Source: Nitrospirota bacterium
Lineage (GTDB): Bacteria > Nitrospirota > UBA9217
Reading direction: 5' to 3'
DNA length: 64,000 bases
NCBI GenBank assembly: GCA_963840455.1
Contig: CAWIYV010000011.1
Location: forward strand, 192,001-256,000
Both the position numbers and the translations under genes were made by a program. The notes beneath the pieces were generated by a model. The model worked only from the letters and a program-made list of their open reading frames with translations, made no database searches and had not been told where the DNA came from. Below, in pieces: positions 1 to 39,433 of the stretch. The first letter of the stretch is position 1, and the number at the start of each line of letters is the position of its first letter.

Positions 1-175
1 CGCCGATGGGCAGGAACGCGTCCACTGACGGCGGCCGCTGGACAAAAGGATGGCCGGGGGCCTCGAAGTGCAGCACGAACTGGGCGAACTGCCAGCCGAC
101 AAATAGCGTAACGAGCAGGAACCAGGCCTGGACAGCGTATCGGACAAAGCGGATGGAATTCCGGGGATAGGACAT
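1..175 (-). CDS. 4Fe-4S binding membrane protein (NapH/MauN-like polyferredoxin), N-terminal part only, runs off the window
   Basis: Manual translation from ATG 175: MSYPRNSIRFVRYAVQAWFLLVTLFVGWQFAQF...RPPSVDAFLPIG, a TM helix plus the RPPxVxAFLPI motif typical of this family. Confidence 0.65.
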   Translation of the reverse strand, partial: MSYPRNSIRFVRYAVQAWFLLVTLFVGWQFAQFVLHFEAPGHPFVQRPPSVDAFLPIG

Positions 176-232
176 GAAATGATTATAGCATCATGCCCGG
201 CCGGGGTTTTATGATTATTATCATATCAAGGC

Positions 233-484
233 TTATGCGGACTGCCGCTTCCTGATCGCGGCCTCAAGCTGCTCAGTGGTGATATCGCATCCCTCGAACA
301 CCACAGTACCGTCGATCTCGATGGCGGGGAACTTCGGCAGCGACACCCGCTGCAGCAGGCCGAAGGACGTCTTCTTGACGACCTCAATGTCAAAGGCATA
401 TTTCTTCTTCAGCTCCGTGACCACGGAGGTTATGTTGTTTCACCATTTCCCCTGCGGGTCGTTGAAATAGAGCTTGATCAGCAT
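233..484 (-). CDS. Small thioredoxin-like selenoprotein with NDPxGxxU motif (TsoC-like), 83 aa, UGA at 440-442 read as Sec
   Basis: RBS GGAAAGGAG before ATG 484; MLIKLYFNDPQGKW-UGA-NNITSVVTEL continues in frame into ORF 233..424; SECIS-like hairpin 413-428; UGA aligns with the paralog at 4136-4405. Confidence 0.85.
413..428 (-). promoter_or_regulatory. Bacterial SECIS-like hairpin
   Basis: CTCCGT-GGTC-ACGGAG, starting 11 nt after the UGA, loop begins with G. Confidence 0.75.
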
Positions 485-518
485 ACAGGTGCTCCTTTCC
501 TGTGACGATCGTCATATG

Positions 519-638
519 ATGAATTCAGGAGCGAGCGCATTCCCCGTGGCTTGCTGCGGGGTTAGCGGGCGCTTAGAATAAGTTATTGCCACCTTGAGGA
601 TCGAAGATTCCCTGCAGCTTGCTGCAGGGAGCTTCAAT
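519..638 (-). repeat. ~120-bp double-hairpin dispersed repeat, copy 1
   Basis: Matches consensus ATTGAAGCTCCCTGCAGCAAGCTGCAGGGAATCTTCGATCCTCAAGG...TATTCTAATCGCTCGCTAACCCCGCAGCAAGCTACGGGGAATGCGCTCGCTCCTGGATTCAAT. Confidence 0.95.
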
Positions 639-642
639 AGCC

Positions 643-1833
643 TCACGGTAAATTGCTCATCCCGTTCCTCATCTTCCAGAGGAAATACCGTTCGAACGAA
701 AGCTTCAGCCACTTCGCCCAAACTGCCTTCTTCGTGTATGAACTCTGCCGTGGAGGCAGGACCGGATAGGCCTTCATCAGAGCGGCGGTGTTCCCCATGT
801 CCATCAGGCAGACGACCCCGAGCTCGTCCGCAAGCGGCGGCGTCTTGCCCGTTATATCCGACGCAATGGTCGCAGCAGCCGTCTTCGCCATCTTCACGGT
901 CATGAAACCTGTTTTCGGCACACCCGTGGGCACCGGAGTCACTTCGGGCGGAGCGATCGCAATCGCAACACCTATGGCAAAGATGTTCCTGTGCTTGGTG
1001 TGGCGATAGTTCTTGTCCACCGGGATGAAGCCCCGCGGATTGCCCAGCGGCGCGACAGCGGGAACGCCCTTGAAGGGAGGCGCGATCATGGCGAGCTTGA
1101 AGGGGATCTTCGTACCGTCTTTTAATTTGATCTCGCCCGGCGTGACTTCCTCGATGGCCCGGCTGACGATCGGCTTGATATCACGCTCGGCAAATTCGTG
1201 TTCCATAAAAGTTTTTGAGGCCCCGAGTCCACCCACGCCCATATGGCCGAGATACGGTTCGGAAGTGAGATAGATGATCGGCACCTTGTGGCGCATCTTC
1301 CTGCGCCGAAGCTCCGCATCCATCTCGAATGCAAGCTCGTAGGACGGGCCGAAGCAGCTCACCATCTGCGATGATCCGAGGACGATCGGGCCGGGATTCT
1401 CAAGAACGCTCCGCCAGGTCGCGCCGGTCTTTACCGCATGATCGAGCGTGAAGGTGCAGGCCGTGTATCCTTTGTCCGGCCCGAGGCCGGGGATCTCATC
1501 AAAAGCAAGATGCGGCCCCGTCGATATGACGAGATGATCATAGGGAATCTCTTTGCCTTGAGCTGTGATGACCTTCGATTTATCAGCATCGATCTGCTTA
1601 GCGCCATCATGAACAAACTCGATCCCCTTCCGCCTCAGGATGTCACTCACTTTGATCGAAATGTCCTCCGGCTTTCGCCAGCCCATGATCAGCCACGGCA
1701 AGGACGGCAGGAACACGAACCGCTCATCGTCGCTCACCACGGTCACGTCCGCTTTCCCGCCAAGCAGTCGCTTCAGTTCCAGGGCCGCGGTCAGCCCTCC
1801 GAACGATCCGCCTAAAACAACGATCTTTGGCAT
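643..1833 (-). CDS. sqr: Sulfide:quinone oxidoreductase-like FAD-dependent oxidoreductase
   Basis: GGSFGG Rossmann motif; catalytic Cys pair in SCFGPSYE and VVCLMD; PKTG motif; amphipathic C-terminus. Confidence 0.8.
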   Translation of the reverse strand: MPKIVVLGGSFGGLTAALELKRLLGGKADVTVVSDDERFVFLPSLPWLIMGWRKPEDISIKVSDILRRKGIEFVHDGAKQIDADKSKVITAQGKEIPYDHLVISTGPHLAFDEIPGLGPDKGYTACTFTLDHAVKTGATWRSVLENPGPIVLGSSQMVSCFGPSYELAFEMDAELRRRKMRHKVPIIYLTSEPYLGHMGVGGLGASKTFMEHEFAERDIKPIVSRAIEEVTPGEIKLKDGTKIPFKLAMIAPPFKGVPAVAPLGNPRGFIPVDKNYRHTKHRNIFAIGVAIAIAPPEVTPVPTGVPKTGFMTVKMAKTAAATIASDITGKTPPLADELGVVCLMDMGNTAALMKAYPVLPPRQSSYTKKAVWAKWLKLSFERYFLWKMRNGMSNLP

Positions 1834-1886
1834 ACTATCCTCCCCAGGATTTTATTGCTTCGCGCACCCTATCTCCTGCCGGCAGT

Positions 1887-2168
1887 CTAAAACATGCCTG
1901 TTACTTTCTCGCCGCTCGTTATAATGTCAGTCAGTTTGTCGTAGTCGATGACTTTGACCCGTTCATCCAGCTCGGAATCCTTGAGCCCCCGGAGCTTCTT
2001 GTCGTCATCCAGCACATACACCGCGCCGGGAAAAGACCCGAGTCGCTCCTTTTGTGCGAACAAGACCCCGTTTTGCAGCAGGACCAGATCGGCCCGGCCT
2101 TCTTGCGCAAGGGTCAGGCCGAGCGCTCCATCGTTCGTATCCGGTGCGCTTTTTACGATCACCAGCAT
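1887..2168 (-). CDS. dsrH: DsrH/TusB family sulfur relay protein
   Basis: 93 aa, LLQNGV and VLDDDKKLRGL motifs, third gene of a dsrEFH-like triad. Confidence 0.8.
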   Translation of the reverse strand: MLVIVKSAPDTNDGALGLTLAQEGRADLVLLQNGVLFAQKERLGSFPGAVYVLDDDKKLRGLKDSELDERVKVIDYDKLTDIITSGEKVTGMF

Positions 2169-2178
2169 GGTCGTCTCC

Positions 2179-2532
2179 TTAAAATATCATGGTAGTATCT
2201 GTTTTACCGATAATATCGGCGATCTCCGCGCCATTGGCAATGGTGACCCCCTCGATTATACGATCATTATCGAGCTGCTCCCTCTTTAATGACGCTTCAT
2301 CGGCATAGACCGCGACACCCATGTCAATGCAATCCTGAATGCCGTCTCCTGCATTCAAATATTCCGTCTGGGATGCGTCCTGTCCCTTTCTTGCCGCATG
2401 CACCCCACCGCCGACAAGCAGCAGCTTTACCTCCATGTCGTCGGTCACCCCTCCGAGCGCATGGCGGAGCGCCTCCGAGGCATCGACCGTCCCGTAGGGA
2501 GGCCTTCTTAAAATTATGCTTATGCTTCCCAT
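2179..2532 (-). CDS. dsrF: DsrF/TusC family protein
   Basis: RRPPYGT...EALR and GGGV motifs of the DsrE/F fold; lies between dsrE and dsrH. Confidence 0.8.
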   Translation of the reverse strand: MGSISIILRRPPYGTVDASEALRHALGGVTDDMEVKLLLVGGGVHAARKGQDASQTEYLNAGDGIQDCIDMGVAVYADEASLKREQLDNDRIIEGVTIANGAEIADIIGKTDTTMIF

Positions 2533-2542
2533 GGTAGCCCCC

Positions 2543-2887
2543 TTATATGCCGAAATTTAGAAACACGGGTTTTGACTTCACAACATTGAAGAGCCCCTTC
2601 AACGAGCTCATCTCGCCGCCCTCAATGGAATCGTCAGCCGCAAGACCGCGGCTTTTCATGCACCCTGTTCAGATATCCACCTTGAGGCCTTTACCCACAA
2701 GGTCTACCAGCGTGGAGAGCGCCTGCGGGACCTGTCCCTTCACAATAGAAAAAACGCCGTCGCCCGAAGCAATAAGTCTTGCCCGGTGCCCCTTCTTCAG
2801 AGCAGCTTCCGCCAGCTTGAAAATCGTGTGCGTGTTCTCAAAGCTGTAGGGAGTCGTGGAAAGGAACATCACAATCTCTTTTTGCAT
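2543..2887 (-). CDS. dsrE: DsrE/TusD family selenoprotein, 114 aa, UGA at 2669-2671 at the catalytic Cys position (UxxC)
   Basis: ...GLKVDI-UGA-TGCMKSRGL...FLNFGI-TAA completes a normal-length DsrE; SECIS-like hairpin 2636-2653. Confidence 0.88.
2636..2653 (-). promoter_or_regulatory. Bacterial SECIS-like hairpin
   Basis: AGCCGC-GGTCTT-GCGGCT, 15 nt after the UGA. Confidence 0.75.
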
Positions 2888-2942
2888 GTCTGCCTCCTTT
2901 TTTTGATTGGGAAAGTGCCGTTTCAGGAACGTTCACAAAATA

Positions 2943-4095
2943 TCAGTTCCGGACACCAAGCAGTATCTGCTCGTGATAAATCGGATAAGCGATCGGATCG
3001 ACATTGTTGTAGCCGATCTTTTTCCGCCGTGCTTCATCCAGAAGATGATATTGCACGGTCACATCCACAACTGCGGGAGTGTCGCTGCCACGCTCGCTCA
3101 CGGAAAACCTGAAATCTCTCGGCTGCCCGTACGGCAGCCGCGTGTCCCGGAGGTCGACAATGAACGGCCTCCACAGGATGTACCGCTTCATGGTGTACAC
3201 TTTCTCAGCCAGTACCTGCCCGCTCGATCCGAGGAGCCGAAGCTCCAGGGTAAGATGCCGGTCCGGTGTGCCGGTCGGCAGATAGTGAGCCGCTCCCACG
3301 TTCGTAAGGGTGACGACCAGCCTGTCGCCCTCCAACCGATGGTCTACCCGGAGCGACTCCTTCACGCGCTCCGGTTCATGTCCGCCGTGGAACAGATGCC
3401 GTCGCCCTTTCCGGGATGGCATCCCCTCGGCGGCCGGACGCACGACGGCGGGCATGTGGCAGGAAACGCAGTCTATCGTCTGACTGCCCTCTTCTATTTC
3501 CGCTACGGTGCCGCAGGGCGGAATAGTATAGAACGTATCCCACCGTTTTCCCGCTACCACATGGCACCTCTGGCACGGTTTGATCCCCTGCGACATCCCG
3601 GGATCGTACTCTACAGGATGAGGCGCCCTGACCGTTGGGAACGGACCGACGATCCTGCCATTCCGGATGTGGCACACCGCGCACGTTACGCCCTCGTCCC
3701 GCAGCGCTGCTGTCGTAGTCCGGATTCGGTGCGAGGATGGGGTCGAATTTATCCCGGTCCCTGAAGCCAAGGACGAGATTCTGTTGCTGGTTCACCAGCG
3801 GCGTGTGGCAGTTGAGGCAGATCTGCTGGGAACCATCATAGAGGAAATCAACCTGGAAGTAGGGCTCGGTCCACGCCAGGGCGTGCATGCTGCCGGCCCA
3901 CTCGCGATAGATCGCCTCATGACATTTCCCGCATTCCTTCGCCTTTACTGAGGCGATGCCGGGAACCGTCCCGATGTGCATCGGCCGCTCGAACCGTTCA
4001 TCGACCACGAAGATGTTCATCGGCCGCAGGAACCGCCAGAGCAGGAACAGGACAACCAACACCACAAGGCTTATCCACAACGCTTTCCTTGTCAT
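2943..4095 (-). CDS. Membrane-anchored pentaheme c-type cytochrome (c554-like) with an apparent 1-base frameshift near 3711
   Basis: N-terminal TM helix (MTRKALWISLVVLVVLFLLW); CGKCH and CLNCH in one frame, CAVCH, CQRCH and CVSCH in the next; removing one base joins ...NPDYD to AALRDEGVTCAVCH. Confidence 0.8.
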
Positions 4096-4135
4096 CGACC
4101 GCTTAGACCTTCGCTCCGCCGGATCAGCGCATCTG

Positions 4136-4405
4136 TCACGCGCCTCCCGTTGATGTGCCGGCCAGGGCCGCCCGCAGCAGCTCAACGTCGGCCACGCCGT
4201 CCCGTACAATGAACTTCCCGTCCACCATCACCGACGGGCAGGGGGGTGGATCCTTCTCCGCGGCGTATTCCGATGAAGTCTTCTTGATGGTCCTGATCTC
4301 GGCGCCGAACTCCTGCGCCGCCCGCCGGGCGGCGTCCTGGTTCGCCAATCATCGTTTCCCCATGGGATCGTTCGCGAACAAGGTGATCGTATGCTTCTGC
4401 ATCAT
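4136..4405 (-). CDS. Small thioredoxin-like selenoprotein with NDPxGxxU motif (TsoC-like), 89 aa, UGA at 4349-4351
   Basis: ATG overlaps the arsR stop (ATGA); MMQKHTITLFANDPMGKR-UGA-LANQDAA...PPPCPSVMVDG; SECIS-like hairpin 4316-4334. Confidence 0.88.
4316..4334 (-). promoter_or_regulatory. Bacterial SECIS-like hairpin
   Basis: CGCCGCCC-GGC-GGGCGGCG, 14 nt after the UGA. Confidence 0.78.
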
Positions 4406-4743
4406 CGTCTCCTCTCTCCGGGATAGGTTCCTTTTTTCGTCACCGGACAGCACGCCGGCGCGGGGATATCCTCTTCATATTCCTTTTTCATCAGTTGCAG
4501 CAGGTCAGGGATGAGGGGTTCCTTGAGGAAATAACACTTGAGCCGGCCGTCAACGAAGAAATCAACGATTTGATGCGAACGCAGCAGCTTGAGGTGCTGC
4601 GACACGTTCGGCTGGCTGATGTCGAGGGAATCCTCGAAGTCGCTCACGCACTTGACTCCCTGCACGAGCTCTTCAAGTATCTTGATCCTGACCGGGTGGG
4701 CAAGTATCTTTAAAAGCTCTATCCTTTTGTCCGTCGAAAGCAT
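4402..4743 (-). CDS. ArsR/SmtB family transcriptional regulator
   Basis: LKILAHPVRIKIL...SQPNVSQHLKLLR HTH signature; several Cys (KCV, KCY, ACCP). Confidence 0.92.
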   Translation of the reverse strand: MLSTDKRIELLKILAHPVRIKILEELVQGVKCVSDFEDSLDISQPNVSQHLKLLRSHQIVDFFVDGRLKCYFLKEPLIPDLLQLMKKEYEEDIPAPACCPVTKKGTYPGERRR

Positions 4744-4771
4744 AAGCGCAAACCTCCGATAAGATATATGC

Positions 4772-4802
4772 AAACATTATTATGTTTTTATGAAATTGTC
4801 AA
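4772..4802 (-). promoter_or_regulatory. Sigma70-type promoter of the arsR operon with an overlapping palindrome (putative ArsR operator)
   Basis: TTGACA-N17-TAATGT on the minus strand; AAACAT-N4-ATGTTT at 4772-4787. Confidence 0.6.
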
Positions 4803-22455: not shown

Positions 22456-23790
<1,335 letters not shown>

Positions 23791-23946: not shown

Positions 23947-23975
23947 TTGACTATATCTCAATCGACAATTATAAT
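23947..23975 (+). promoter_or_regulatory. Sigma70 promoter
   Basis: TTGACT-N17-TATAAT. Confidence 0.75.
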
Positions 23976-24096
23976 AAAAGCTCACAATTGTAATTTGCCA
24001 TATGGCAGCTCTCTGGAACCTGCTGATTTTTCTTCATTCAGAGTTAATGTCTAAATCTGCCTTTTCCAAGGCACAGACTAAAAAGGAGGAGATACC

Positions 24097-25509
24097 ATGT
24101 TGCGAAAATGCATCAGCCTTTCCCTTGCAACGGTCCTGACATCCGGCATCCTTATCGCCGGCCAGGCCGGAGCGCAGGAAAAGGCCGCAGCACCGGCAGC
24201 TCCGCAGGCGAAGCCCACCGTGGCCAAGGTCTGCGCGAACTGTCACCAGCCGCAGCCCGGGAACCTTCGGGCAAATTTCGACAGCGTAGCCTACAAGACC
24301 AGGTCGATCCAGGTCAAGATCGACGAGGCGACCGAGATCCTGCGGTTCGATGATAAGCTCCAGCTCGTGAACATCCAGGCCCCCGCCGACGCACCGGACC
24401 AGCCGCTCCGGGCGCTCAAGAAGGGCAAGGAGGTCCGGATCGAGTATACCGAGAAGGACGGCAAGAAGTTCATGACCCTTATCTCGGCCAAGCCGCCCAT
24501 CAAGATCGCGCCCGAGAAGATGGTCAAGACCGAGGACGTTGAGAAGCTCGTTGCGCTGGGTCCGGAAAAGGGCAAGTATATGCTTATCGATGCCCGGCCG
24601 CTTCCGCGGTTCCAGGAAGGCTTCATTCCCACGGCGGTGAACATCCCCTTCCCGGCCTTCGAGAAGATGAAGGACAAGCTCCCGGCGGACAAGGCGACGC
24701 TCATCGTCTATTACTGCGCCGGGGTCACCTGAGCGATGAGCCCTGACTCTGCCCGGCGGGCAGAGAACCTTGGTTACACCAATGTGAAGGTCTACCACGA
24801 CGGCGTGCCGGAGTGGGTGAAGCGGAACTATCTCGTACTGTCAACGCAGTTCCTGAAGGATGCATGGATCGAGAAGGACATCCCGCATGTGCTCGTGGAC
24901 GTGCGGCCCGCAGCGGAAGCTGAAAAGGGATTCATCAAGGGCGCGGTCACGGTCCCCGTCGTAGAGATCGAGAAGGCCATCGCCAAGTTCCCGCCCAAGG
25001 ACAAGAAGGCGCCCATCATGATCTACGATCAGAAGGGCGGCGATGACGCGGTCAAGGCGGCGAAGGCGCTCATCACGGCGGGCTATGCGCCGGTGGACAT
25101 CGTATCAGGCGGGTTCGACGGCTGGAAGGCTGCGGGCTTCCCGGTCCAGACGGGCAAGCTCGCGACGAACATCGTGTACGTGCCCAAGCCGCGGCCCGGC
25201 GAGATCTCCATCGAGGACTTCACGAAGATCGCCATGAATACGCCTGCGGACACCCTGATCCTCGATGTACGCAACCGCGACGAGGGCAATGCCGGCATGA
25301 TCAAGGGCGCGAAGCTCGTGCCCGACGAGGAGATCCTCGACCGGTTTGCCGAGGTCCCGAAGGACAAGAAGATCGTGACCCATTGCTCCACAGGCGTGCG
25401 TGCCGAGATGGCCTACCACAAGCTGAAGGAGAAGGGCTACAACGTCCAGTTCCTGAACGCCAAGGTGGAGATCAACGACAAGGGCGAGTTCAAGCTCGAG
25501 AAGCCCTGA
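24097..25509 (+). CDS. Exported monoheme cytochrome c / triple-rhodanese selenoprotein, 470 aa, UGA at 24730-24732
   Basis: Signal peptide, CANCH, YYCAGVT-UGA-AMSPDSA joins two in-frame ORFs; SECIS-like hairpin 24747-24765; third domain has HCSTGVRA. Confidence 0.88.
24747..24765 (+). promoter_or_regulatory. Bacterial SECIS-like hairpin
   Basis: CTCTGCCC-GGC-GGGCAGAG, 14 nt after the UGA. Confidence 0.8.
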
Positions 25510-25577: not shown

Positions 25578-25613
25578 AAAAGCCCCGGGGAAGAACCTCC
25601 GGGGCTTTTTTTT
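25578..25613 (+). terminator. Rho-independent terminator, probably bidirectional
   Basis: AAAAGCCCCGG...CCGGGGCTTTTTTTT between convergent genes. Confidence 0.85.
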
Positions 25614-25640: not shown

Positions 25641-26495
25641 TCAGGGCGCGCCGGGGAAACGCCGTTTTTCCAGAAGCAATACCATGCGGTCCAGGTGGAC
25701 CTTCTCCTCAGCTGCAAGGACCTGGAATACCCGCTTCGCGCTTTCCCCTGCCAGCTCCCGCTCCATTCTGATGTAGAGATCAAATGCGTGCGACTCCAGC
25801 GCTATGGACAGGTCCAGGACGTCGTTCACATCCTTGCCCTTCACCCATTCGAGGGCCTTCGTCACCGACATGCCTCCCTCCATCACCTCTCCCGGGACAG
25901 TACCCAAAAAGAACGCCTCCGGGATCGCCGTAGCAGCCGTGTCGCCGGTCGCCTCGCGATATACTCCGACCAGGGCCGCCTTGTGATGGTCCTCGGCACG
26001 CACTAGTCCGTCGAAGAGGCCGACGGCTTCGCGGTCCTCAAGTGCTGACGCCATGCTGTGGTAGAACCGTCGCGATCCTTCCTCCAGCGACCACGCGAGG
26101 GCGATCAGCTCTTCGGGCTTTTCCCTGCCGGAGAACAGGACCATGCCTGCCTCGGGCGGACCGTCGACAACGAGGCCGCGCCAGGCCTGGATCCCGCCCT
26201 CCATGCTGAACACGTTCGTGAAACCGGCGTCGAGCAGGATGCTCGCTGCAGCCCGGCTTCGGTTCCCGGAACGGCAATAGAGCACGGTCGGCCGGGAACG
26301 GTCGAGCTCCCGCTCGCGCTCATACAGATCTCCCAGCGGGACGAGCGCCGCGCCGGGGATATGTCCCTGGCCGTATTCGCCCGGCTGACGTACATCGATG
26401 AGATTATACGCGCCCGGGTCTCTCTCCCTGAGCAGGTCCTTCACCTGCCGGGCGGTCATGGCAGGTATGGGTTTGAACGGGCCGGTGGGGATCAT
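25641..26495 (-). CDS. Rhodanese domain + rubrerythrin/ferritin-like domain protein
   Basis: DVRQPGEY..GHIPGA, YCRSGNRS; EE...FY, E..H motifs twice. Confidence 0.85.
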   Translation of the reverse strand: MIPTGPFKPIPAMTARQVKDLLRERDPGAYNLIDVRQPGEYGQGHIPGAALVPLGDLYERERELDRSRPTVLYCRSGNRSRAAASILLDAGFTNVFSMEGGIQAWRGLVVDGPPEAGMVLFSGREKPEELIALAWSLEEGSRRFYHSMASALEDREAVGLFDGLVRAEDHHKAALVGVYREATGDTAATAIPEAFFLGTVPGEVMEGGMSVTKALEWVKGKDVNDVLDLSIALESHAFDLYIRMERELAGESAKRVFQVLAAEEKVHLDRMVLLLEKRRFPGAP

Positions 26496-26822
26496 GATCG
26501 CATCGTAGGACGCCAGACATCGGCAAGCCGGGTCTGCGTTCCTCCTCCCTTTGACTCCAGCACATACCGAAAAAGCTCCCGGCACATCTGGAGGCGTTCA
26601 GAAGATCTTCCGCTCCGATTCGTTGAGCTTCTCGGTCCGTGGCTTGAGTGCCTCGCACGGGGGCACACCACGGTCAGAGACTGCGTATCCGCTGTCCTGC
26701 CGGAGATGTCGTTGAACTCGTTCAGCCAGTCAGGGGCCAATGTCCGAATGAGGAGAAAAGCAGTTTGTCGCTGCGATCTGTGCGCCGTCAGCGTCTGCGG
26801 TCAGCTCGCGGAAGCGGCCCGG

Positions 26823-38771: not shown

Positions 38772-39221
38772 CTACATCGTCGGCGGCTGGATGTTCACCT
38801 CGCCGGGGTTCACGATCTTGTCCTCGTCGGACCGGGACCCCTCAATGGACTTCCGCTTGCCTTCGGCGATCTTCTTGAGCTTGAACTCCACCTTCTTGCC
38901 GCCGAACTTCGTGATCTCCACGGTCTGGGTGTCGGTCTGGTACCCGATCCTGCTCGCCTCAACCTTGTACATGCCCGGCGTGAGCTTCCCCTTCTCCGAC
39001 TCGAACTTGCCTTCTTTGTTCACCGTCACGGCATGGGAAGCCTGTTCGAGGGTGGAGGTGGTGTTGATCATGTTCACCACCGTGCCCTCCGGGCTCTCCT
39101 TCGCGGGCGGGATAGGCTGCATAGTGGGGTCCATGAGCTGGAGCGTGCCGTAGATCTTCGGCGAGCATGCGGACAACAGGAGCAGACAGGCGATCAGGGC
39201 GAACTTCTGAGTGTGGCGCAT
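38772..39221 (-). CDS. Lipoprotein with a carboxypeptidase-regulatory-like (prealbumin-fold) domain
   Basis: Lipobox LSAC; PGMYKVEASRIGY; RBS AGGAGG. Confidence 0.8.
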   Translation of the reverse strand: MRHTQKFALIACLLLLSACSPKIYGTLQLMDPTMQPIPPAKESPEGTVVNMINTTSTLEQASHAVTVNKEGKFESEKGKLTPGMYKVEASRIGYQTDTQTVEITKFGGKKVEFKLKKIAEGKRKSIEGSRSDEDKIVNPGEVNIQPPTM

Positions 39222-39276
39222 GATATTCTTCCTCCTGGGCGTAATGGGCGTTGTCGGTCCCGGCGAATGCAGACAC

Positions 39277-39332
39277 AAAAAAACCGCCAAAGTCTATATC
39301 CAACGGATGTTAGAATACTTGGACTTTGGCGG
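39277..39332 (-). terminator. Intrinsic terminator (riboswitch expression platform)
   Basis: CCGCCAAAGTC...GACTTTGGCGG followed by T7; 5' arm overlaps aptamer P1. Confidence 0.8.
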
Positions 39333-39433
39333 CCCGACTGGCGTATAAACCGGAACCTCGATGATCTGAAGCGGTTTTCTGTAGCCTCGGTGCTCTGCGT
39401 CCCCGGGTTTCCCCGGGTTTGCTCTGAGCAAAG
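39324..39433 (-). ncRNA. GEMM-I (c-di-GMP-I class) riboswitch, A20 variant
   Basis: CTTTGCTCAGAGCAAACCCGGGGAAACCCGGGGACGCAGAGCACCGAGGCTAC...TACGCCAGTCGGGCCGCCAAAG: P1 CTTTG/CAAAG, GAAA-capped P2, P3. Confidence 0.85.

Follow-up and report, generated by a model that had tools for sequence, protein, structure and literature searches.

Rhodanese-fold proteins of the periplasm include Sud of Wolinella succinogenes, a polysulfide-sulfur transferase that feeds PsrABC, and YnjE of Escherichia coli; Sud is a small single-domain homodimer with neither heme nor selenocysteine (Sec), and YnjE has three rhodanese domains. Here we describe a gene that appears to encode an exported selenoprotein with three rhodanese domains and a predicted heme c attachment motif. 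It lies on the plus strand of a 64,000-nucleotide stretch of DNA from a Nitrospirota bacterium (contig CAWIYV010000011.1, positions 192,001 to 256,000); this whole stretch is called the window below, and positions are counted from its first letter. We regard the protein as belonging to a real, widespread, and mis-annotated selenoprotein family, whose place in sulfur respiration is plausible.

In 2026, MccSep (ExtKL) was shown to be the polysulfide reductase on which respiration of elemental sulfur (S0) depends in Geobacter sulfurreducens, the first enzyme of Geobacter with a demonstrated essential part in this process; it cleaves polysulfide with a heme-ligating cysteine together with Sec and occurs mainly in Desulfobacterota and Nitrospirota (PMC13510729). 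The extHIJKL cluster of the same species encodes ExtH, an exported rhodanese-like lipoprotein of ~49 kDa, along with a porin-like protein, a small protein, and ExtKL/MccSep (PMC6148476, PMC5877670), and Otero et al. remark that many ext clusters have "a different rhodanese-like protein" that is <40% identical to ExtH. A 2026 catalog of prokaryotic selenoproteins, built by comparative genomics, distinguishes rhodanese-like forms 1 to 5 (PMC13188914); in the available text of that catalog the word "heme" occurs 0 times. Our literature search found no description of a heme-rhodanese architecture of this kind, and none of what it does or how it relates to MccSep or ExtH; the supplements of PMC13188914 and PMC13510729, which lay outside that search, may list the family.

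Organization of the gene

The open reading frame (ORF) at 24097-24732 (211 amino acids [aa]) ends at the TGA of 24730-24732, past which the same frame is free of stops until the TGA at 25507-25509; read through, the frame yields 470 residues, while the second piece alone has 257 aa. Public collections contain both pieces, identical letter for letter, as separate proteins; their clusters have 28 and 27 members, under the names rhodanese-like, sulfurtransferase, or hypothetical. An earlier note on this stretch, made from the sequence alone, had foreseen such a split by standard gene callers and had argued for one exported gene with a recoded UGA in a C-x4-U rhodanese loop; the homologs we found are indeed single proteins of ~460 aa. 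No NCBIfam model reaches its cutoff for the read-through protein, so that pipelines cut the Sec forms in two. Half-length representatives were also found among the best 150 of a 50%-identity library: seven start at residue 214, and three end at residues 210 to 211. A search of the ESM Atlas with the translation-table-11 ORF returned truncated-rhodanese clusters (85 to 160 members, scores of 0.78 to 0.81), which we take as leads only.

The gene is monocistronic, with ffh (22456-23790, minus strand) upstream and a convergent rhodanese/rubrerythrin-like gene (25641-26585, minus strand) downstream. The product of the latter joins a cytoplasmic rhodanese domain to a rubrerythrin/ferritin-like one; this gene is shared only with the closest relative and is therefore not in a conserved unit with the selenoprotein gene. 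Across the Nitrospirota members of the family, the conserved neighborhood is trmD-rimM-rpsP-ffh, divergent from the selenoprotein gene. The consensus promoter and terminator reported in the earlier note were both recovered (Table 1). A promoter scan of the region found three promoter-like sites, compared to 0.5 expected; the terminator folds at −23.6 kcal/mol (z = −3.4), which 0 of 200 shuffles equaled. A consensus terminator scan gave no match at 25578-25613; the hairpin was found by folding instead.

Table 1. Window coordinates of the putative selenoprotein gene, its signals, and the predicted parts of its product
Feature	Position	Strand	Basis
Promoter-like site, σ70 type, TTGACT-17 nt-TATAAT (predicted)	23947..23975	+	11/12 consensus matches; consensus match alone
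Ribosome-binding site AGGAGG, 7 nt 5' of ATG	24084..24089	+	Read from sequence
Single coding sequence, 470 codons plus stop, UGA at 24730 read through	24097..25509	+	ORF list and full-length homologs
Secretory (Sec-type) signal peptide, residues 1-26, cleavage at ~AGA/QE, no lipobox (predicted)	24097..24174	+	Read from sequence
C46-A-N-C-H50, predicted heme c attachment motif	24232..24246	+	Conservation
All-beta N-terminal domain, residues 56-131, five strands, no known family	24262..24489	+	AlphaFold2 model
Rhodanese domain 1, loop C207-A-G-V-T-U212-A-M-S (C207 codon, 24715-24717)	24517..24837	+	Pfam
In-frame UGA, very probably selenocysteine 212 (cysteine possible via tRNA-ReC-like gene)	24730..24732	+	TGA/Cys conservation
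SECIS-like hairpin, 8 bp (CUCUGCCC / GGGCAGAG), loop GGC	24747..24765	+	Folding and covariation
Rhodanese domain 2, inactive type, Asp311 at catalytic position (D311 codon, 25027-25029)	24859..25161	+	Pfam
Rhodanese domain 3, canonical loop H-C430-S-T-G-V-R-A-E-M (C430 codon in HCSTGVR, 25384-25386)	25204..25461	+	Pfam
Intrinsic terminator, 13-bp hairpin (25578-25609) and U run	25578..25613	+	Folding

Conservation of the UGA codon

We searched 5.8 billion proteins for homologs and aligned the query with all 120 full-length homologs listed (121 rows in total); in the protein search these were 453 to 486 aa long and 54 to 69% identical to the query. Cysteine (Cys) occupies the UGA column in all 120 listed. 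The earlier note had suggested an alignment with homologs having a CxGxxC loop, and the outcome agrees with its reading: the listed homologs are single, Cys-bearing proteins rather than pairs of separate proteins lacking Cys at the UGA position.

A six-frame search of 61 Nitrospirota genomes found a match in 23. The codon is TGA in 23 of 23 motif-bearing loci of these relatives, which comprise 22 orthologs (49 to 94% identical) and one paralog, each with a single in-frame TGA at the identical codon. A second copy in Nitrospirota (L037) has Cys at the Sec position, and two matches lack the loop motif: a C-terminal fragment (L038) and a protein only 33% identical (L036). In a collection of species-representative contigs, from which five off-target pattern matches (L079, L103, L106, L115, and L119) were left out, the codon is TGA at 16 of 80 loci and TGC or TGT at the other 64. 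The TGA-type loci come from entries titled Nitrospirota or Nitrospirae, except for one titled Deltaproteobacteria; the Cys-type loci are from Betaproteobacteria, Geobacterales/Desulfuromonadales, Myxococcota, and Gammaproteobacteria.

Among 81 Geobacteraceae genomes scanned, 19 have a full-length ortholog (E ≤ 1e-100), with an in-frame TGA in 12 of these 19. All 11 of the Geobacteraceae TGA loci that we inspected encode a signal peptide, CxxCH, and CAGVT-TGA-ALSP. Two Geobacteraceae matches carry extra in-frame stops, perhaps upstream of the true start (G115:C12:497459-498781, with two TGA codons in all, and G124:C2:137550-138857, with one TGA and one TAG).

Metatranscriptome contigs from three libraries in two studies cover both halves of the gene, two of them bridging the UGA, and the RNA-contig rows listed show no difference at 24730-24732; this support is weak, because such libraries may hold DNA and because most of the contigs come from relatives.

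A SECIS-like hairpin downstream of the UGA

A hairpin resembling a selenocysteine insertion sequence (SECIS) starts 15 nt after the UGA; relatives keep a core of six base pairs and a G-rich loop of 5 nt, mostly GGUCG. All six core pairs are formed in 23 of 23 aligned TGA sequences. Changes on both sides occur at three core pairs, mostly at synonymous third positions of Ser/Ala codons (UCU...GCA versus UCC...GCG), and 0 of 500 shuffles reached the covariation score. When the 3' arm was slid along as a control, pairing fell to 37 to 55%, compared to 93% at the true position.

The Cys forms provide a natural control for the hairpin, because the residues encoded there (S-A-x-x-A-E/K) are similar. 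Fourteen of the 16 TGA loci form all six pairs, and the other two form five; none of the 64 Cys loci forms all six (five pairs in 22, four in 28, three in 13, and two in 1). Likewise, in Geobacteraceae the hairpin is fully paired at 11 of 11 TGA loci and 0 of 4 Cys loci. In the window's own genome, genes for FdhA-type selenoproteins are similar in this respect, with a hairpin that follows their UGA at 11 nt and has a GGUCU loop; the E. coli fdhF SECIS has GGUC as its loop. No Rfam SECIS family reached its gathering score for the hairpin region.

Together with the conserved codon, the hairpin bears on the reading of the UGA as a true stop that ends the first of two separate genes or marks a pseudogene. 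Public annotation does show two proteins. However, the best of the Pfam rhodanese stretches, residues 157-242, spans the UGA, so such a stop would fall inside the domain, at its active-site loop; moreover, no separate ribosome-binding site serves the second ORF, whose first in-frame ATG lies 4 nt past the UGA, and neither the conserved TGA, nor the covarying hairpin, nor the Cys in every full-length homolog listed fits termination. We consider this reading hardly credible and already contradicted.

Decoding of the UGA

The genome, 100% complete by marker count, encodes SelA, SelB, SelD (whose gene has its own TGA), and tRNA-Sec; the canonical selC (C1:311722-311816) has a discriminator G. Codon 212 is very probably decoded as Sec by SelB acting with the SECIS-like hairpin.

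A second selC-like tRNA gene is present at G000:C9:389439-389529 (L002:1500-1594). Its anticodon is UCA, its acceptor and D stems have 8 and 6 bp, respectively, its variable arm is long, and its discriminator U is followed by CCA; the gene adjoins LysR-like and DsrE-like ORFs. It has the features described for tRNA-ReC (UCA, 8-bp acceptor stem, long variable arm, discriminator U), which reads SECIS-associated UGA as Cys (PMC13582414). The UGA might therefore be read mainly as Cys, making the mature protein a Cys form. We find this very unlikely: the canonical tRNA-Sec and selA, selB, and selD are all present, and keeping TGA and SECIS over 49 to 94% identity would be pointless if Cys were the sole product.

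An exported protein with a heme motif and three rhodanese domains

The signal peptide, CANCH motif, CAGVTU loop, Asp of rhodanese domain 2, and CSTGVR loop of the earlier note were all found where it had placed them (Table 1). The predicted signal peptide consists of MLRK, a hydrophobic run (mean Kyte-Doolittle value of 1.88 over residues 6-22), and AGA/QE; inspection by eye of residues 1-30 showed no lipobox. In the AlphaFold2 model, made from the 121-row alignment (mean predicted local distance difference test score [pLDDT], 90.7; predicted template modeling score, 0.81), residues 1-27 are disordered (pLDDT below 50) and are followed by an all-beta domain right after the heme motif and by three alpha/beta rhodanese domains.

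CANCH is predicted to bind heme c covalently. C49 and H50 are invariant and C46 is kept in at least 90% of the 121 aligned sequences; the motif lies in an exported protein, and the host has cytochrome c assembly (maturation) genes. Of 105 distinct family rows, 100 have CxxCH ahead of the loop. Among the other five, L092 and L115 are cut by the ends of their loci, L069 is unclear, L035 has CxxxxCH, another accepted heme c motif, and L137 truly lacks a motif. L137 (G082:C1, ORF 2701-3975 through the TGA) is a Sec-type triple-rhodanese relative with the loop CGGVT-U-VLSP; BLASTP gave no alignment between its heme-less N terminus and the N-terminal domain of our protein, and a rhodanese/YceI-like ORF is convergent to its gene. 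L035 (G048:C1:44475-45773), in which the motif reads CSLPGCH, shares its Nitrospirota genome with a second Sec-type copy, L039 (G048:C1:1931750-1933003), a divergent paralog (34% identical) in which hairpin pairing is kept through three compensatory changes.

The three rhodanese stretches together score 158.5 bits with Pfam PF00581 (cutoff, 22.2; E = 7e-47). In sequence alignment, C207 corresponds to the catalytic Cys of solved rhodaneses and U212 to the sixth loop position. G209, C430, G433, R435, E437, M438, and H441 are invariant in the 121 sequences, at least 90% of which retain C207 and D311. The C-x4-U/C loop, which is found also in the solved protein BH2092, suggests a redox-active subclass of rhodaneses. 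A Foldseek search with the whole model gave matches to multi-rhodanese sulfurtransferases alone (1yt8, 6mxv, EanB, and YnjE), with low TM-scores, and no information on the N-terminal domain.

In a wider sense, the family has 249 cluster representatives at E ≤ 1e-30 in the 50%-identity library. Among its best 150 matches, 82 representatives are full-length-like; by a strict pattern, 9 of these have both the loop and an N-terminal CxxCH, 24 the loop only, 11 CxxCH only, and 38 neither. Since CxxCH is absent from L137 and from 62 of these 82 representatives, the heme appears to be an accessory module.

These data bear on the possibility that the protein, like Sud or YnjE, does no more than carry sulfur and has no redox catalysis of its own, with CxxCH binding a metal or forming a disulfide. 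The fold search, the lack of a cytochrome family match for the N terminus, and the dispensability of the heme motif in relatives are all in its favor. Nevertheless, we consider it unlikely, because CxxCH is invariant down to its His in a protein that is exported by hosts with cytochrome c maturation, because L035 has CxxxxCH in its place, and because a second chalcogen five residues past the catalytic Cys suggests bond resolution rather than mere carriage.

Evolution of Sec and Cys forms

A maximum-likelihood tree was built from 119 of 124 loci, of which 14 identical rows were merged to leave 105 distinct rows, with the Sec/Cys column masked. This tree needs only three Sec/Cys changes: Sec forms stand at its base and around three nested Cys clades, namely one pair from Gammaproteobacteria, one clade of Geobacterales and Myxococcota, and one of Betaproteobacteria that adjoins Nitrospirota Sec forms. 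Its topology is consistent with Sec as the ancestral state and Cys as the derived one; it does not establish this, because the root is a midpoint placed on two long branches (L039 and L137).

Genomic context and co-occurrence with MccSep

We counted neighbors within 6 kb of the 64 Cys-type loci. A PhsA-like molybdopterin enzyme (NCBIfam PhsA, 528 bits, below the cutoff of 694) is encoded at 29 loci, its 4Fe-4S partner at 24, an NrfD-type membrane subunit at 21, and a DUF3373 protein at 22. An Otr-like octaheme cytochrome of the tetrathionate reductase family, which matches PDB 1sp3 (E = 5e-22) but scores below the cutoff of TIGR04315, is found at 16. At least one of the PhsA-like, DUF3373, and Otr-like proteins is encoded at 35 of the 64 loci.

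In Geotalea toluenoxydans JCM 15764 (L113), small ORFs, a phosphate-porin-like gene, further small ORFs, and an ExtKL/MccSep homolog with a TGA lie, in this order, downstream of the Cys-type gene and share its strand. This is the gene order of extHIJKL, with our family in the place of ExtH (PMC5877670, PMC6148476); genome G076 shows the same 3.7-kb spacing. An equation of DUF3373 with ExtI was rejected, since the gene at the ExtI position of L113 is Porin_O_P-like.

The window's genome also has, on another contig, a pentaheme gene of the MccSep/ExtKL family (G000:C4:2287-3561, L142:2266-3579; NF040886, 563 bits, cutoff 250), which encodes five CxxCH motifs, one TGA, and a 115-aa continuation. 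No rhodanese was seen among the ORFs listed within 14 kb of it, a scan that took in only two ORFs. Of the 61 Nitrospirota genomes, 22 have the motif-bearing gene, and MccSep is present in 20 of these; it is present in 9 of the 39 others. The difference holds for selB-positive Nitrospirota (19 of 21 versus 7 of 21) and for selB-positive members of the window's own taxonomic family (19 of 20 versus 5 of 12). In the 81 Geobacteraceae, MccSep is found in 15 of 19 genomes with the gene, including 12 of 12 with the TGA type, and in 16 of 62 without it.

The earlier note had pictured a sulfur/selenium transferase wired to electron transfer, plausibly working with an operon at 1-4802. The general idea, a tentative one, fits the contexts of the Cys-type genes and the co-occurrence with MccSep. 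We found no support for the operon link: 19 kb with ribosomal, tRNA modification, and signal recognition particle genes separate that cluster from our gene, the two are on opposite strands, and the conserved neighbor in relatives is ffh rather than the cluster.

Context also informs two other readings. The protein could be a periplasmic oxidant of thiosulfate, sulfide, or polysulfide, a heme-thiol enzyme following the logic of SoxAX/TsdA (His/Cys-ligated heme) and passing electrons to cytochromes. Its single heme motif beside reactive Cys residues resembles TsdA/SoxAX, and half of the Cys-type loci are betaproteobacterial (for example, from Casimicrobiaceae, Usitatibacteraceae, Rubrivivax, and Sterolibacterium); the authors of the MccSep study relate its mechanism to the reverse of TsdA/SoxAX (PMC13510729). 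On the other hand, His/Cys ligation cannot be demonstrated, and neither sox nor tsd genes are among the recurrent neighbors, which are of the reductase type (PhsA-like with NrfD, Otr-like). An oxidative role thus seems rather unlikely to us.

Alternatively, the protein might handle selenium, either as a periplasmic selenite/selenium reductase, its Cys-Sec loop capturing Se derived from selenite and its heme giving electrons, or as a Se carrier. Rhodanese domains are known in selenium metabolism, and our protein has weak NCBIfam matches to MnmH; reduction of selenite and tellurite has been linked to the ext cluster that includes the rhodanese ExtH (PMC5877670, PMC6148476), and MccSep reduces selenite too (PMC13510729). 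We nonetheless regard this as quite unlikely: the neighbors of the Cys-type genes are reductases of the thiosulfate/polysulfide and tetrathionate types, with nothing specific to selenium, and most members are Cys-type and come from lineages that show no sign of selenium respiration.

Proposed role in sulfur respiration

We propose that the gene encodes one exported heme-rhodanese selenoprotein serving sulfur respiration, an explanation that we give an even chance as a whole. The more specific role that we favor, in which the protein carries sulfane sulfur in the periplasm or reduces it, with its own heme feeding a redox-active Cys-Sec loop, is tentative and falls just short of that. The protein would bind zero-valent (sulfane) sulfur from polysulfide, thiosulfate, or S0 in the periplasm. 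The selenolate of Sec212, two loop turns from the canonical catalytic Cys207, would attack the S-S bond, and Cys207 would resolve the adduct, leaving a Cys-S-Se-Sec or Cys-S-S-Se-Sec bridge and releasing sulfide or a shorter chain. The protein's own heme c or partner cytochromes might then re-reduce the Cys/Sec bridge. Rhodanese domain 3 (Cys430), together with inactive domain 2 as in classical tandem rhodaneses, could carry the persulfide and hand it on, with sulfur passing to or from partner reductases: MccSep here, PhsA-like or Otr-like enzymes elsewhere. The selenoprotein would thus act as a sulfur carrier or auxiliary reductase in the MccSep chain, as proposed for ExtH in extHIJKL.

Several observations weigh against this proposal. 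The gene in the window is solitary, between ffh and an unrelated convergent gene, and sulfur reductase neighbors were found at 0 of 16 Sec-type loci and 0 of 3 Geobacteraceae Sec-type loci. In the own genome, the nearest matches to PhsA-like enzymes are formate dehydrogenase-like and only 27 to 28% identical, so a close one is lacking, and searches of this genome for DUF3373 and Otr gave no match but are uninformative, as the controls were equally silent. The co-occurrence counts overstate independence because the genomes are kin; in addition, MccSep and the selenoprotein gene both need the Sec machinery, for which the selB-positive subset is only a partial control. The UGA may sometimes be read as Cys, given the tRNA-ReC-like gene. 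As for the heme, the N-terminal 115 residues match no Pfam family and no PDB sequence (best subthreshold Pfam match, Cytochrome_CBB3, E = 0.041), and no Met or His that could be the distal ligand is conserved in residues 27-140 of the 121-row alignment; neither a cytochrome fold or family nor a distal ligand was thus found, and the wider-family representatives without CxxCH, like Sec-type L137, point the same way.

A bolder version would make the protein a self-contained chalcogen reductase with a single heme, a minimal counterpart of MccSep on a rhodanese scaffold. The Cys207/Sec212 loop would serve as a ligand to its heme iron or exchange electrons with it directly, and cleavage of polysulfide (or selenite) would take place on a Cys-S-(S/Se)-Se-Sec bridge that is reduced via the heme. 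We think this fairly unlikely; if true, it would mean that selenium-sulfur-heme catalysis arose twice, in unrelated folds, in the same sulfur-respiring lineages, and that a Sec ancestor gave way to Cys at least three times, with the tRNA-ReC-like gene as a Sec/Cys switch.

The favored role, as carrier or reductase in the MccSep chain, bears on anoxic sediments, wetlands, and aquifers, in which uncultured Nitrospirota and Desulfobacterota carry out most of the respiration and disproportionation of sulfur. The route by which polysulfide sulfur reaches MccSep has been left open, and our family is a candidate for the missing periplasmic component on several grounds: it is predicted to be exported, it has sulfur-carrying domains with a Cys-Sec pair and a heme site, it co-occurs with MccSep in two phyla, and in one named Geobacteraceae genome it stands in the place of ExtH.

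Other features of the window

The cluster at 1-4802 (minus strand) is itself a sulfur relay cluster, with genes for an ArsR-type regulator (4402-4773), a multiheme cytochrome, a DsrE/F-like protein (2179-2532), a DsrH-like protein (1887-2168), and a Pyr_redox_2 flavoprotein (643-1833). In its DsrE-like gene, the frame contains a TGA at 2669-2671 (loop DI-U-TGC), after which comes a hairpin whose loop is GGUCU, and two small thioredoxin-like ORFs (~233-520 and 4103-4420) also have an in-frame TGA; these DsrE-like and thioredoxin-like ORFs are candidates for further selenoproteins. The CxxCH motifs of the cytochrome are spread over two frames (~3376-3920), perhaps as a result of a frameshift or an assembly error. 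Elsewhere in the window, a c-di-GMP-I riboswitch (39325-39433, minus strand; Rfam, 51.3 bits) lies upstream of a gene with a CarboxypepD_reg domain (38772-39290) and a large string of PEGA/TPR genes.

Comparison with known systems

The rhodanese-like selenoproteins of the 2026 catalog have Sec in or next to the active-site loop of a rhodanese domain, as does ours. The loop U212-A-M-S215 fits the UxxS motif of form 1, a comparison by motif alone, and C-x4-U has the spacing of form 5 (TsoB, UxxxxU), whereas the motifs of forms 2 and 4 (UxxG) and of form 3 (CxU) are unlike it (PMC13188914). TsoB is a DsbD fusion with two Sec residues; our protein has no DsbD part and is not a member, scoring 80 bits (cutoff, 805) with NF045694 (seleno_TsoB) over residues 141-247 only. 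Nor does it belong to NF041203 (rhodanese_LYCAU, form 3), where it scores 75.7 bits (cutoff, 115) and differs in motif (C-x4-U instead of CxU).

MccSep shares with our protein a periplasmic location, c-type heme with a reactive Cys and Sec, and Cys forms nested among Sec forms (PMC13510729). The two have no sequence relationship: MccSep, as its available description has it, has five hemes and an Ig-like (immunoglobulin-like) domain and no rhodanese domain, whereas our protein has one heme motif and places Cys and Sec in a single rhodanese loop. ExtH, compared here through its published description, is likewise an exported rhodanese protein, and the G. toluenoxydans Cys-type ortholog sits in its position; the window protein, by contrast, has no lipobox and its gene no adjoining ext gene, and only the Cys-type members in L113 and G076 were found in the ExtH position.

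The best structural matches, E. coli YnjE and the thiosulfate sulfurtransferase 1yt8 of Pseudomonas aeruginosa (Foldseek E values of 1e-14 to 1e-9), are also multi-rhodanese chains, but they have no heme motif, no second Cys or Sec in the loop, and no beta N-terminal domain; TM-scores of at most 0.27 indicate that their domain arrangement differs. BH2092 of Bacillus halodurans (PDB 3nhv/3o3w), a protein of uncharacterized function, aligns with the same C-x-G-x-x-C loop (YCWGPACNG, compared to YCAGVT(U)AMS), although it is a single domain with Cys instead of Sec, and no export signal or heme motif was seen in it. As a working model we look to Sud, a rhodanese-fold carrier that delivers sulfur to a Psr/Phs-type molybdoenzyme, the type of neighbor encoded at 29 of the 64 Cys-type loci.

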